A stretch of DNA of 64,000 bases from Gemmatimonadaceae bacterium (GTDB lineage Bacteria > Gemmatimonadota > Gemmatimonadetes > Gemmatimonadales > Gemmatimonadaceae), in NCBI GenBank assembly GCA_045803545.1, contig JBJMOW010000004.1:128001-192000 (forward strand). The letters are read 5' to 3'. Made by a program: the position numbers and the translations under genes. Under the pieces are notes generated by a model, which had not been told where the DNA came from, ran no database searches, and worked only from the letters and a program-made list of their open reading frames with translations. The first letter of the stretch is position 1. Each line of letters opens with the position of its first letter. Of the stretch, positions 215 through 5,586 are shown one piece after another.

Positions 215-826
215 CTAGTCTCTGTCTTTCTTACCTTTACCCTTACCGTGATCTTTTTGTTTCGAATCGTAGTCACGATTGGTATTGACGCTCGAGCCGA
301 CGTATACGCGATTGCCGAACTGATCGTAACGATAGTTGGCATCGTTGTAGCGTTGATTGCCCTCGTTATCAGCCCGGTTGTAGCCGTCGTTGCCGTTGCG
401 CTTCTGCGCCTTCCTGATTTCCTTCTCCCGCTGCTTCTCAGCCTTCTTCCATTGCTTGTCGTTGTTGTTCGCAATGCGGCTGTTCAAAATCGTGAAGGTG
501 CCGTTGGGATTACGGCGCGCACGCTGGATGATCAGGTTGCCGTAATTGTCGCGGACGCGACGCTCGTAAACCTGGCTGCGGCCATTACCGACCTGGTACC
601 AGGAGCCGTCGTTACGTGAGTACACGTCCTGGCAGTTGTTACTGGTATTGAGATTGGTGCGACCGAAGATGATGTCGCCTACGCTGTTGGTCGTACGGTT
701 GTACGTGCAATCGTTGCTGGTACGCTGACCAGTGATGACAGTGCCCGGACGCGGAACCGACTGTGCGTTCAGCGACGCGGCAGCAGTGACACCAACAATG
801 GCCAGGCTGAAGGCGAATACCTTCAT
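215..826 (-). CDS. Secreted hypothetical protein
   Basis: Signal peptide (MKVFAFSLAIVGVTAAASLNAQ); Asn/Arg/Tyr-rich body with a Cys pair; basic C-terminal tail; AGGAGG SD; ATGA overlap with the upstream gene. Confidence 0.8.
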   Translation of the reverse strand: MKVFAFSLAIVGVTAAASLNAQSVPRPGTVITGQRTSNDCTYNRTTNSVGDIIFGRTNLNTSNNCQDVYSRNDGSWYQVGNGRSQVYERRVRDNYGNLIIQRARRNPNGTFTILNSRIANNNDKQWKKAEKQREKEIRKAQKRNGNDGYNRADNEGNQRYNDANYRYDQFGNRVYVGSSVNTNRDYDSKQKDHGKGKGKKDRD

Positions 827-1215
827 CGTGAAATCCTCCTCGTGATTAAATCAACTAGCTCGTCGGTCGTGCTCGACTTGCCGTTGTTTGATTTTCCTTT
901 CTTGCCCTTTTGTGGCTCATCGCCGAACAGGACCTTGGCGTTGGCCGGCCGGTTTCTTACCGCTGAAGCGCAGTCGGTAGGTGCTGGCTGCTGGTTGGCG
1001 GGCACATCGTTGAGCCAGATACGGCACATACCTGCCGGCGGAAAGAATCCGGGCGGTACGATCTGGGCTCGACGCTGCGTCTGCTGATTCTGCGGCTTCT
1101 GCGGAACCGGTCGTTGGGCCTCAGCAACCCCCGCCGTAAAGACGAGAGCAACCAGGCCGACTAGCGGCGCACGGAGGCGAGAAGGAATCGAAATGAAGCG
1201 AAAGTGCTGCATCAT
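823..1215 (-). CDS. Secreted hypothetical protein with a PPGxxPPAGMCRIW...PAPTDC motif
   Basis: Hydrophobic signal segment ending AEA-Q; small two-Cys Pro-rich domain; start placed at ATG 1215 or 1212. Confidence 0.75.
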   Translation of the reverse strand: MMQHFRFISIPSRLRAPLVGLVALVFTAGVAEAQRPVPQKPQNQQTQRRAQIVPPGFFPPAGMCRIWLNDVPANQQPAPTDCASAVRNRPANAKVLFGDEPQKGKKGKSNNGKSSTTDELVDLITRRISR

Positions 1216-1228
1216 GGCGCCTCTAGGG

Positions 1229-1245
1229 TGCAGGGGCGGTGCCAA
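1229..1245 (-). promoter_or_regulatory. Putative sigma54 -24/-12 promoter
   Basis: - strand TTGGCACCGCCCCTGCA has GG-N10-GC spacing and matches TGGCAC-N5-(T/C)TGCA. Confidence 0.6.
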
Positions 1246-1396
1246 ATTCGAACCGGTGAGCTAAGTCATTGAACCCAAGCAACTTATCCCACTTTGTCGG
1301 TTTCGCCTTGCTACCCAAATGTCCCCTCACGGGGACAAGAAACTGATACACTTCGACAGCTCAAACTTACCTGCCCGGAAACGGTCTCCGGCCTGC

Positions 1397-2476
1397 TCAA
1401 TCCCCGAAGGATATGCCCGTCGCCCGGGCCGTTAGCACCGTGTCGTGGTCCACTTCCACCCGCTTCGGTGTCTTCAACACACCGGCCAGCGGAATGGCCA
1501 CAATGTGGGGCGATTGTAGCGCGATCATGTGATCCCACTTCTCTTCGGCCACGGCGCGGACTGCCGCGCCACCGAATCGTACCGCCAAAAGCCGATCGTA
1601 GCCAGTCGGCATTCCACCCCGCTGGAGATGTCCGAGGATGAGCGAGCGCGTTTCCTTCTTCGTGCGCTCTTGAATGTCGTCCGCCAGGCGCTCAGCGACC
1701 CCTCCGACCCGCACGGCCTGACCGGGCATCGACTTCCCCAGGACGTGGGCGGATTCGCCCTTTGGATGAGCGCCCTCTGCAATCACGACGATAGAGAAGT
1801 GTCTGCCGGCCCGACCGCGAGCAACGATCTTCTCGCACACCTTATCAATGTCGTAGGGGATCTCGGGAATCAGGATGACGTCAGCGGTTCCCGCGAGTCC
1901 GGCGTGCAAAGCGATGAAACCGGCGTGACGCCCCATCACCTCGAGAACGATCACGCGATCGTGACTCTCCGCGGTGGTGTGGAGTTTGTCGATCGCCTCG
2001 AGTGCCGTGTTGACCGCGGTATCAAAACCGAAGGTGGTGATCGTGCCGTTGACGTCGTTGTCGATGGTCTTGGGAACGCACACTATCCGCATTCCGCGCT
2101 CGCAGAGTTGGTGGGCGATTGTTAGCGATCCGTCACCGCCGATCGAGATCATCGCATCGATACCTAGCCTGCGCGCGTTTTCGATCAACTCATCCGAGCG
2201 GTCTTGCTCGATACAACTTCCATCAGGTTGAACGACGGGATAGTTGAATGGATTACCGCGGTTGGTCGTGCGCAGGATGGTGCCGCCAAGGTGGGCGATG
2301 CCGCGAACGGTGGTCGGCGTCATTGGAATCACTTCCTCTTCGCCGAGCAGTCCCGCGTAACCTTTCTTGATACCGAGAACTTCCCAGCCGCGGTTGCACG
2401 CCGATAGCACTGCCGCGCGAATGACGGCATTGAGTCCCGGCGCATCACCACCGCCGGTAGACAAAGCGATTCTCAT
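1397..2476 (-). CDS. pfkA: 6-phosphofructokinase (PfkA family, group III-like)
   Basis: GGGDAPGLN, GGDGS, PKTIDND, EVMGR and LGHLQRGG motifs; Gly104/Lys124-type signature. Confidence 0.95.
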   Translation of the reverse strand: MRIALSTGGGDAPGLNAVIRAAVLSACNRGWEVLGIKKGYAGLLGEEEVIPMTPTTVRGIAHLGGTILRTTNRGNPFNYPVVQPDGSCIEQDRSDELIENARRLGIDAMISIGGDGSLTIAHQLCERGMRIVCVPKTIDNDVNGTITTFGFDTAVNTALEAIDKLHTTAESHDRVIVLEVMGRHAGFIALHAGLAGTADVILIPEIPYDIDKVCEKIVARGRAGRHFSIVVIAEGAHPKGESAHVLGKSMPGQAVRVGGVAERLADDIQERTKKETRSLILGHLQRGGMPTGYDRLLAVRFGGAAVRAVAEEKWDHMIALQSPHIVAIPLAGVLKTPKRVEVDHDTVLTARATGISFGD

Positions 2477-2480
2477 ATTG

Positions 2481-2708
2481 TCAGGCTTTTCGTTCTAGTA
2501 GGGAGATGATTTCTCCAGGCTTGGCGTGTCGGCCAAGTTTTGACTTCTCGAATATCGGGACGTCGTCAGCGACGACCTCAAAGCGTCCACCTCGCGACGG
2601 AGTCATCTTCACGTCCGCGTCCGGGAAACGCTGCTTGATCTCTGCCGCCAAACTGGCGGCACGTGGCTGATAGTTTCAGACGACGCAGTATTCGATGCTG
2701 ATTTTCAT
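2481..2708 (-). CDS. SelW/SelT/SelH (Rdx family) selenoprotein with in-frame UGA read as Sec (CxxU)
   Basis: Manual translation: MKISIEYCVV-U(TGA 2678-2676)-NYQPRAASLAAEIKQRFPDADVKMTPSRGGRFEVVADDVPIFEKSKLGRHAKPGEIISLLERKA* (75 aa). Shows the Rdx hallmarks IEYCxxU and GxFEV and fills the gap between two co-oriented genes. Confidence 0.92.
2643..2661 (-). promoter_or_regulatory. Bacterial SECIS-like stem-loop
   Basis: Perfect 8-bp stem UGCCGCCA-GUU-UGGCGGCA on the mRNA. The apical loop begins about 22 nt after the UGA and starts with GU. Confidence 0.8.
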
Positions 2709-2722
2709 TGTCGGTTCGATGG

Positions 2723-5059
2723 TTATTGATTGCCCGTCGGATACTGATCCGCGAGTTGTTGGGCTTCTGGCGTGCCGATCACCTTTAGCGCTACAACCGC
2801 CGGCCGTCTAATCACGTCCTGCCATAAATCCGGCGCCATAAGCTGCTTGGCGAGCGGTAGCGCCGCGTTTTTTTCCAGTCGGATGTCGGCGGCGAGCGCA
2901 GCACCACGTACAATGTAGTTCGGATCGTCACGGGCAATCTGCCGCAGCCGGATTCCCACGTCGCGGGAGGCCGTTCCGCTCAATACGAGATCGCCCAGCG
3001 CGCTGGACGCAGCCTGCCTGACCCTCGCATCGATGTCCCGCGTTGCGGTGACCAGATTATCGGTGATGCCCCGCATCGGCGAGGCTGCCGCTCTGCTGGT
3101 GTCATTGCCCCAGGCGCCGAGTGCATCGACAGCGCGCGCTCTGACGGCCCAGAACCGATCGTTGCGGGCGGCTCGTCGCAGTGCATCGAGCGCATTGCGG
3201 TCACTTGGCCGGTCCGCCAACGCTTCCACTGCTTCGATTCTGCCGAGTACGTCGTCGTCGTGGACGAGCTCGTACTGCAACATTGCGGTGGAGCGCGGGA
3301 AGTCGGTGAGCTCGAGGAGCCAGTTGCCCTTGTTCCAGCGAATCGAGCGCGGCGGCGCCTTGAGATTGGCGGCGGCTTCACCAGCTCCATTGCGAACGGG
3401 CACGACGAATCGGACAACCCCACTATCGGTGCGCGCTTCGACATCGACGTCGACGTCGAAGAAACCGGTGAGACTGTCGCGCGCTTGTACTTCGCGGGCG
3501 GTGACAGTAAGCCGATTCCCAGCGCGGTCGTAATTCGAGGAAACCTGGAATACCGGAAAGCCTGCGCCGTAGACCCACTGATCGAAGAATGCCTTCAGAT
3601 CCTTGCCGGTTGTCTCCTCGAAGGCGCGTCGAAGATCGTCGGAGACGACGTTGTCATACGCGTGCGAAGTCGCGTAGCGGTTGATGCCTCTCCAGAAAAC
3701 CGAATCGCCGAACTGATGGCGGAGCATCTGGAGAACCGTCGCGCCCTTCTGATAGATGTGGCCGGTGAAGAAAACCTCGATCGGGTCATTGACCCACTTG
3801 CCCCACACGATTGGTCGACGCGCTCGTCGATCGCCCTCGATTGCCTGCTCCTGTGCCAACAGTCGGTCATAGGCTCCCTCATCCACTCCGAAGTTCTCTT
3901 CGTGAAAAATCTCCTCCATGAAAGTCGCGAACCCTTCGTTCAGCCAGACATGCGCCCAGCTTCGGGTGGTGAGCAGATCGCCGAACCACTGATGTCCGAG
4001 CTCGTGCGACATGAGGTCGACGCTGTTTGCCTGCGGCTCGGACCATAGCGGATGCAGAATCTCGGCGTCGTTCTGCGAGGTTGCCGTGACGTTCTCCATC
4101 CCGCCGTACTGAAATTCGGGGATGACGATCTGATCGTACTTCACCCATGGATACGCAACGCCGGTCTTGCGCGAGAAAACGTCGACGGCCTGAGGCGTTC
4201 TGGCGAAACCGCGACGCGCGGCTTCGACCGAGTCCGGATATGTCCAGTATCCGATCGGTACGCCTCGCCACGGCGTGTCCTGAAGCACGACGTAATTGCC
4301 GATGACGCATGTCATCAAATAAGTGGAGGCCGGTTTGTCCTGCACCCAGTGCCACTCAATGCTATCGCCGACAGCGCGTGAGCCGGCGAGCCGACCATTC
4401 GACAAAGCGCGCTCGTCTTTCCGGGTCCAGATGTAGAACTCCCACGTGGTCTTGTCGTTGGGAAAATCGTACGTCGGAACCCAGTAGCGATTGTCTTCCG
4501 TTTCACCTTGGGTCCAAATGATGTGTTTGGCTGGGCGAAAGTACGCGCCTTTGCTTCGATTGACTCCCTCGTATTCGACGGTGAGCAGGAGCTTCTGATC
4601 GGTGGTCAGCGCTCGCGGCAGCTGAATCGCAAGTCTGTTGTCGCTGTAGTCAAAGCGGACAGCGGCGCCGTCGGATGTCACGTTTCGTATCCGCATGTCT
4701 CCCGCGTCGAGGACGACTGTGCGCAGCGGTGCAGCGTTGGGGAGTCCCGCGATTGTCAGTGTGGTCGATCCCACCACGGCGTGGGTTTGCCACTCGAACC
4801 GGATGGTCGTGCTCTGGTGCTGTAGATCATAAGTACGACGCCGCTCGGCGTGAGTGACTCCTTCGGGAAGAGGGCCCCACGCGATCAAGGGCGTTCCCTT
4901 GAATCCGGGTACGTGGTTGGGCGTGAGTGTGGTGTCCATGCGGAACGGCGACACACCTGGAACCGGCGTCGGCTGAACTTCAGCGGGCTGTCTGGCCGCG
5001 GGTGCACAGCCAGCCAACACCGCGCATGCGATGATTGTCGCGCCGGGAAAGGCTTTCAT
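2723..5059 (-). CDS. M1 family aminopeptidase with C-terminal HEAT repeats, probable lipoprotein
   Basis: GGMEN and HELGHQW...NEGFA zinc motifs, YQKG, HEAT-like C-terminus; lipobox VLAGC after ATG 5059 (ORF track extends to 5125). Confidence 0.93.
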   Translation of the reverse strand: MKAFPGATIIACAVLAGCAPAARQPAEVQPTPVPGVSPFRMDTTLTPNHVPGFKGTPLIAWGPLPEGVTHAERRRTYDLQHQSTTIRFEWQTHAVVGSTTLTIAGLPNAAPLRTVVLDAGDMRIRNVTSDGAAVRFDYSDNRLAIQLPRALTTDQKLLLTVEYEGVNRSKGAYFRPAKHIIWTQGETEDNRYWVPTYDFPNDKTTWEFYIWTRKDERALSNGRLAGSRAVGDSIEWHWVQDKPASTYLMTCVIGNYVVLQDTPWRGVPIGYWTYPDSVEAARRGFARTPQAVDVFSRKTGVAYPWVKYDQIVIPEFQYGGMENVTATSQNDAEILHPLWSEPQANSVDLMSHELGHQWFGDLLTTRSWAHVWLNEGFATFMEEIFHEENFGVDEGAYDRLLAQEQAIEGDRRARRPIVWGKWVNDPIEVFFTGHIYQKGATVLQMLRHQFGDSVFWRGINRYATSHAYDNVVSDDLRRAFEETTGKDLKAFFDQWVYGAGFPVFQVSSNYDRAGNRLTVTAREVQARDSLTGFFDVDVDVEARTDSGVVRFVVPVRNGAGEAAANLKAPPRSIRWNKGNWLLELTDFPRSTAMLQYELVHDDDVLGRIEAVEALADRPSDRNALDALRRAARNDRFWAVRARAVDALGAWGNDTSRAAASPMRGITDNLVTATRDIDARVRQAASSALGDLVLSGTASRDVGIRLRQIARDDPNYIVRGAALAADIRLEKNAALPLAKQLMAPDLWQDVIRRPAVVALKVIGTPEAQQLADQYPTGNQ

Positions 5060-5166
5060 TCGGCGCGGGAACGGTTTGAATGCGCCCGCATCAATCTGAT
5101 CAACGTCATTGTCTGCTTCTGACATATGCTATTCAGCGAACCAGGTATCTGGAAGGAGTTACGGGT

Positions 5167-5586
5167 GTGCGACGCGCGTTTAGCGCAATCGAATTGACGA
5201 TTGTCGTTGGTATCCTCAGCGTTCTCTCCGCCATCGCCATGCCAGCGGTGACGCGATTGCTCGACCGCGTGCGAGTGCGCGCCGCAGTTACCGAGATCGA
5301 ATCGTTATTCGCAACGGCCAGACACGCCGCAATCGCGCGCGGCACACCTGCCAGTGTCGAGATCGATACGGCAGGACGATCGATTTCAGTGACACTCGAT
5401 CGCGATACGCTGCGAAAAGGCATGCTGGGTACCGAACACGGAATTGAGCTCGCGACAAACCGGAGCAGCATGACTTATTCACCCACCGGCGTTGGCTACG
5501 GCGCGGCAAATCTCAGCGTCGTCGTCCGAAGGAGCGCGGTCGCCGATACTGTCGTGGTTTCGCGTCTGGGCCGGGTTCGGCACTGA
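5167..5586 (+). CDS. FimT/GspH-like minor (pseudo)pilin
   Basis: Prepilin-like RRA|FSAIELTIVVGIL with Glu+5; ARxxAI motif; C-terminal VSRLGRVR; GGAAGGAG SD before GTG 5167. Confidence 0.85.
   Translation: MRRAFSAIELTIVVGILSVLSAIAMPAVTRLLDRVRVRAAVTEIESLFATARHAAIARGTPASVEIDTAGRSISVTLDRDTLRKGMLGTEHGIELATNRSSMTYSPTGVGYGAANLSVVVRRSAVADTVVVSRLGRVRH

Follow-up and report, generated by a model that had tools for sequence, protein, structure and literature searches.

Of all prokaryotic selenoprotein families in the Global Ocean Sampling data, the SelW-like one had the most sequences, 427 with selenocysteine (Sec) against 56 with cysteine, and it is named there as one of the most widespread (PMC2398784). 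The family is included in a genome survey of 2006, in which very few or no Cys homologs are reported for Sec-containing organisms (PMC1794560), and it is covered in current reviews (PMC13188914, PMC9312934). The bacterial SelW-like proteins are described as predicted rather than experimentally verified and of unknown function, and truncation of selenoproteins by gene callers is stated as a general problem (PMC13188914). The established bacterial route to Sec proceeds via SelD, SelA, SelB, and a SECIS element (PMC1794560).

In this study, a gene of this family was located in the window, i.e., the whole stretch of 64,000 nucleotides that was analyzed. The gene for a SelW-like (SelT/SelW/SelH, Rdx) selenoprotein of 75 aa lies on the minus strand at 2481..2708. 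Its read-through translation, MKISIEYCVV*NYQPRAASLAAE...GGRFEV...ERKA*, begins with ATG and consists of 75 codons followed by a terminal TGA, with a single internal TGA at codon 11 (2678-2676). The CxxU redox motif (2676..2687, minus strand) is formed by Cys8 (TGC), two valines, and Sec11. The ORF is absent from the ORF list at a threshold of at least 60 aa. A preliminary description of this DNA had proposed a SelW/Rdx gene with a CxxU motif that was missed by standard ORF calling, in a frame broken only by the TGA at codon 11 and with GGRFEV in frame downstream; our translation and the family profiles described below agree with both statements. The length of 76 codons given there holds only if the stop is counted, and the gap of 242 nt between the flanking genes has to be corrected to 246 nt (aminopeptidase stop at 2723 to pfk start at 2476). 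The upstream neighbor is an M1 aminopeptidase with C-terminal HEAT repeats (2723..5125, minus strand, profile match), the end of which is 14 nt from the selenoprotein start. Downstream is a 6-phosphofructokinase gene (pfk; 1397..2476, minus strand; TIGR02483 PFK_mixed, with the motifs GGDGS and PKTIDND), a probable operon partner that starts 4 nt past the selenoprotein stop. Two adjoining ORFs of 203 and 140 aa (215-1245, minus strand) are located downstream of pfk; both have signal-like N-termini and low-complexity, N/Q/R-rich sequence, and look-alikes are found behind the selenoprotein gene in close relatives, even in those without pfk.

The 2481..2708 ORF is almost certainly an intact gene on the chromosome, with a Sec-containing Rdx protein as its product, made by ordinary bacterial Sec insertion. 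This reading is based on the frame, the family, the predicted fold, the machinery genes, the conservation of the TGA, and the selection on a hairpin. When, as had been proposed for the Rdx profile, the read-through protein was scored (here with Sec read as Cys), it exceeded the cut-offs of Pfam Rdx (PF10262; 71.2 bits vs. 22.6, E 8.5e-20) and of the NCBIfam models TIGR02174 (59.7 bits vs. 34.2) and NF041051 (93.5 bits vs. 88); because three family cut-offs are exceeded, a chance ORF is excluded. It is also the sole Rdx match in a profile search of the organism's own genome. An AlphaFold2 model (Sec modeled as Cys; 30-sequence alignment) had a pLDDT of 96, and the top structural matches were the SelW-related structures 2fa8, 2obk, 2oka, 2ojl, and 2p0g (TM 0.87-0.91, rmsd 1.3-1.5 A). 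The TM of 0.87 between the predicted model and 2fa8 places the protein among minimal thioredoxin-like folds; the values for mouse SelW (2npb) and for 2ljk were 0.77 and 0.73, respectively. In the sequence alignment the fold is kept over the whole length of the protein among relatives. The product is thus an Rdx-family protein, with the N-terminal CxxU motif and with scores above the family cut-offs.

The genome from which the window is taken (3.70 Mb, 93% complete) has as its best named relatives Gemmatimonadaceae metagenome-assembled genomes, with up to 87% identity. All components of the Sec machinery were identified in it. The selA (C6:242878-244200) and selB (C6:474489-476330) genes, both above their profile cut-offs, are located on the same contig, apart from each other, while selD (C3:41122-42042, minus strand, above the profile cut-off) lies on a different contig directly upstream of the tRNA-Sec gene (selC; C3:40932-41024, minus strand; Rfam 64.9 bits vs. 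a cut-off of 47; anticodon TCA). An in-frame TGA is also present in selD, at ...QCAG*ASK (CAG-TGA-ASK). The earlier proposal that this organism uses Sec is thus supported, and a genome lacking the machinery, which had been named as a possible counterargument, was not what we found. A genome-wide reassignment of UGA to Trp, Gly, or another residue has been considered as well, since six database relatives have W at the motif position. Its probability is negligible: of the 1657 long open frames of the genome (shadow frames counted), 796 end in TGA, more than in any other stop, which excludes a reassigned code, as the preliminary description had argued from the use of TGA as an ordinary stop. Furthermore, the selenoprotein gene itself and pfk both end in TGA, and the only tRNA found with a TCA anticodon is the long tRNA-Sec, whereas the tRNA-Trp has CCA.

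A crude genome-wide screen for UGA read-through (410 candidates, 140 of them judged by eye) recovered the SelW-like gene and selD and does not represent the full selenoproteome. Two other likely selenoproteins were noted. One is a peroxiredoxin of a known family (AhpC/TSA, E 8e-29; C4:1075316-1075918, plus strand; L132:1817-2419) with TKG-TGA-T (TxxU), a signal-like N-terminal stretch, and a G-loop hairpin past the TGA. The other is a thioredoxin-like protein (Thioredoxin_2, E 4e-15; C4:645278-645850, minus strand; L133:2279-2851) with M-TGA-SGC (UxxC), a TPR-like C-terminal region, and a G-loop hairpin. Formate dehydrogenase was rejected as the reason for Sec retention: a Sec-type FdhA was not found with the PF00384 query in this 93% complete genome, and the three matches lie in uninterrupted frames, with no stop inside the match. 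In some FdhA proteins, however, the N-terminal Sec position lies outside PF00384.

Conservation of the TGA was followed at several taxonomic depths. It was present in all 80 named related loci, which are the best 80 of 284, were found with query-derived patterns, and lean to close kin. In the window and these 80 loci together, Cys8, the TGA, and Ile5 are each present in 81 of 81 sequences. Within a draw of genomes from the order, an Rdx match was detected in 57 of 61; each of the 60 match rows has one TGA, and the TGA is at the CxxU position in all 30 loci inspected. The same position holds a TGA in 14 of 14 further, hand-picked loci. Coding conservation extends over both sides of the UGA, which aligns to the redox Cys/Sec position of the family. 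An even sample of the phylum (151 Gemmatimonadota genomes, at least 90% complete) had Rdx matches in 95 genomes, every row with one TGA, and selA in 122; Sec use is thus the rule in the Gemmatimonadota genomes sampled. Both genes were found in 94 genomes, Rdx only in 1, selA only in 28, and neither in 28, counts to which no test statistic is attached since the genomes are kin and not independent. The single genome with Rdx and no selA match (G040) carries selB.

Exceptions were also seen in the order draw. Two genomes, G018 (94% complete) and G029 (87%), have no match for Rdx, selA, or selB. In three others (G004, G011 at 69% completeness, and G054 at 85%), the gene is present with no selA match in genomes that are 69-85% complete; G004 has selB, and no selB match was found in G054. 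In the phylum draw, three genera have neither selA nor Rdx (g21, 0/4; g22, 0/3; g33, 0/6), and one family (f7) has selA in 16 of 16 genomes and Rdx in 3 of 16. Judging from this distribution, Sec use and the SelW-like gene have apparently been lost in lineage-wide steps.

Database relatives from Gemmatimonadaceae carry the name "SelT/SelW/SelH family protein" or that of "Rdx family protein," and the majority are pieces of about 56 residues that lack the active site. Most of the 120 database relatives listed are 50-68 residues long and cover the last three quarters of the query (such as P0008, P0029, and P0068), as would be expected if the TGA were a nonsense or sequencing error in a Cys-type Rdx pseudogene, or if the real product were a 56-residue protein translated from a downstream TTG. 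We consider this reading scarcely credible. Protein-level conservation extends over the ten codons that precede the TGA, the TGA recurs across the phylum and tracks selA, and the 56-residue form would have neither strand 1 nor the CxxU motif. A contig of 331 nt from a second study, which spans 2379-2709, has 4 differences, none of them at 2676-2678; with the TGA conserved in relatives and unchanged in this contig, a sequencing error is excluded. Relatives that all carry Cys and lack a hairpin, another objection anticipated earlier, were likewise not what we observed, as the relatives have the TGA and a conserved SECIS-like hairpin. Of 15 database proteins examined, 12 span the motif: 6 have W at this position, 3 have C, 2 have R, and the motif of 1 is garbled; all 12 come from clusters of 1-3 sequences. 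These entries speak against a fully uniform TGA, but they may stem from gene calling under code 4, from errors in the reads, from the display of U as C, or from genuine Cys variants.

A few irregular copies were encountered. In G083 (L150:2085-2240), an in-frame deletion has removed the central strands, with the TGA, the hairpin, and the pfk junction kept; this was seen in one genome and could be decay or an assembly error. In G119 (L151:1860-2074), the gene is apparently frameshifted in its last third and pfk is intact behind it. Six relatives have frames of 386-963 codons around the gene, which were considered as fusions and rejected; the long frames are G+C-rich shadow frames, and all six contain ordinary genes of 74-78 residues with their own start, separate from pfk. 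No tblastn match was detected in 50,697 phage records searched for phage carriage.

A candidate bacterial SECIS hairpin was identified at 2643..2661 (minus strand), within the coding sequence at codons 17-22. It has a stem of 6-8 bp and a loop of 3-5 nt, with the loop G 21-22 nt after the UGA and an energy of -14.4 kcal/mol. It fits the bacterial SECIS model given in PMC13188914, i.e., a loop of 3-9 nt, a stem of 4-16 bp, a G in the first two loop positions, a spacing of 16-37 nt to the UGA, and an energy no higher than -7.5 kcal/mol. A loop G together with an energy of at most -7.5 was found in 79 of the 81 sequences (window plus 80 loci); among 405 control windows of the same length further down the same genes, 11% reach -7.5, counted on energy alone. 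Codon choice is the strongest evidence for selection on the hairpin. All 81 sequences have C at the third position of codon 18 (Ala18 is GCC in 57 of 57), and codon 20 is CTG or TTG only. Codon 19 is AGT (65), AGG (9), or GGT (7), so that three amino acids occur with the loop G kept in all; Ser19 is AGT in 65 of 65, and the codons used are minor ones (genome use 0.10, 0.05, and 0.20, respectively). The top-codon share in degenerate columns outside codons 17-21 is 0.30-0.64.

The pairing itself gave a more mixed picture. Paired bases were observed in 96% of cells, and 5 cells have two-sided changes, in 2 of 6 pairs; 13 of 79 sequences do not form the pair at columns 22-32. None of 500 shuffles scored as high on three of five measures, in a test that is inflated by the relatedness of the sequences. 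Folded in isolation, the region shows no more than mild stability (z -1.1 to -2.5; -1.4 for 79 nt and -2.5 for 43 nt), and no Rfam match was detected at E up to 1 in window positions 1200-3200. The invariant hairpin offers a clean natural SECIS for reporter tests.

Based on established Sec biology, SelD would make selenophosphate, SelA would convert Ser-tRNA(Sec) to Sec-tRNA(Sec), and SelB would bind the hairpin 3' of codon 11 and bring Sec to the UGA. In the minimal thioredoxin-like fold predicted for the product, Cys8 and Sec11 would sit in the loop that connects strand 1 to helix 1. The motif and the predicted fold suggest that the product is most likely a small cytoplasmic thiol/selenol oxidoreductase, which would alternate between a selenenyl-sulfide and a reduced form and would reduce disulfides or other oxidized thiols on partner proteins. 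RNA libraries (3 runs) yielded few short contigs; one contig of 184 nt (depth 2.5) is identical to 2408-2591, across the junction of the gene and pfk, and is no evidence of transcription, as RNA libraries can contain DNA.

The position of the gene next to pfk is a recurrent feature among relatives. Among named loci with a flank of at least 300 nt, 57 of 79 have pfk immediately behind the gene. The same arrangement was seen in 17 of the 28 loci from the same genus that have full flank (one partial) and in all 8 of the additional, hand-picked loci of the same order. The aminopeptidase is directly upstream in 29 of 76 loci and is a neighbor only among close relatives. All adjacent PFKs have GGDG[ST] and PKTIDND, which we take to be the ATP-type signature of this PFK group. 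The gene order and the retention of PFK Cys214 in 52 of 54 adjacent enzymes would fit a dedicated redox regulator of the PFK encoded behind the gene, yet we regard this role as distinctly unlikely. A conserved cysteine pair was not found in the adjacent PFKs (Cys125 in 31 of 54, Cys133 in 30 of 54), and pfk was nearby in none of 6 hand-picked loci from other families of the class. In L058, L066, and L072, the selenoprotein gene is intact but is followed only by pfk remnants. Two genomes with the selenoprotein gene, G014 (93% complete) and G030 (82%), have no pfk at the locus and, genome-wide, only a distant paralog of 32-38% identity. Conversely, G018, the genome without Rdx, selA, and selB matches mentioned above, keeps a 69% identical pfk behind another gene.

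The remnants are found at about 3229-3330, just past the stop of the selenoprotein gene, and correspond to the last 13 pfk codons in L058 and the first ~20 in L066; at the same place, decayed pfk starts were seen in L072 and probably in L065. These sequences suggest that pfk was lost repeatedly among close relatives. The genome of the window has a second, distant phosphofructokinase-family gene (C2:559859-560947), 33% identical to the one in the window.

The ORF might also act as a selenium-sensing leader, in which ribosomes would stop at codon 11 when Sec is low and pfk expression would drop via lost coupling or polarity. In favor of such a leader, the gap between the two genes is at most 7 nt in 34 of 60 loci and 4 nt in the window; a scan of window positions 1200-5300 showed neither promoter-like sites nor terminator-like sites on the minus strand, although with about one promoter expected by chance this absence says little; and the internally deleted gene of G083, in a single genome, keeps the TGA, the hairpin, and the pfk junction. 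This spacing is, however, ordinary, as 80 of 206 adjacent long-ORF pairs in the same genome are at most 7 nt apart, and the gap exceeds 7 nt in 26 of the 60 loci, with a maximum of 102 nt. The missing Shine-Dalgarno motif is the norm too, since only 21% of 1122 long ORFs of the genome have one. In addition, the protein fold is conserved over its full length and the gene persists without pfk, so that we hold the leader to be highly improbable. Special translational coupling of the two genes was rejected on the same grounds, neither the spacing nor the use of Shine-Dalgarno motifs being unusual for the genome.

The position before pfk most likely reflects the inherited order of genes that share a transcript rather than a dedicated partnership. 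More broadly, the selenoprotein gene and pfk could form a working unit in most Gemmatimonadales, one that would couple the committed glycolytic step to selenium or to redox state, through reduction or regulation of PFK or through Sec-gated translation of pfk. Such a unit would provide a first candidate target for the SelW-like protein, the commonest bacterial selenoprotein whose function is unknown, but it is unlikely; the functional link is weak because the selenoprotein gene persists in several relatives from which pfk has been lost.

The gene is real and widespread in the phylum; its family, however, is among the commonest bacterial selenoprotein families known and has been catalogued for two decades. 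The finding is a correction of annotation and not a discovery, and only a functional tie to pfk would give it greater importance. The term "Gemmatimonad" is absent from the main text of two reviews (PMC13188914, PMC9312934), and the use of Sec in Gemmatimonadota is not treated in the accessible sections of PMC8318568 and PMC4807772. Our literature search found no discussion of Gemmatimonadota selenoproteins, which may be listed in supplements of large surveys or in subscription papers, and no paper joining a SelW-like selenoprotein with phosphofructokinase.

Among known systems, mammalian SELENOW and MIEN1/C17orf37 have a thioredoxin-like fold in common with the model of the query. A known partner of SELENOW, 14-3-3, is a eukaryotic protein; this partnership is therefore not transferable to the bacterial protein. 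SELENOW also has a CXXU motif (PMC8508763). The eukaryotic SECIS is located in the 3' UTR (PMC2398784), whereas the candidate hairpin described here is within the coding sequence. The Cys-type bacterial Rdx proteins of solved structure (2fa8 Atu0228, 2obk, 2oka, 2ojl, 2p0g, and 3dex) have 25-36% identity to the query, and their YCxxC aligns with its YCVVU; they differ in having CxxC and a length of 103-108 aa, about 30 residues longer than the query. The bacterial SelW-like proteins (PF10262 Rdx, TIGR02174 CXXU_selWTH, NF041051 SelTWH_Campy) resemble the query in length, in the N-terminal CxxU, and in the G-x-F-E-V strand. One difference is in gene neighborhood: clustering of SelW-like genes with peroxiredoxin has been reported (PMC2398784, PMC13188914), whereas the neighbor here is pfk. 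Bacterial SelW-like genes and the gene described here are alike in the in-frame UGA with a downstream SECIS and in having few Cys homologs.
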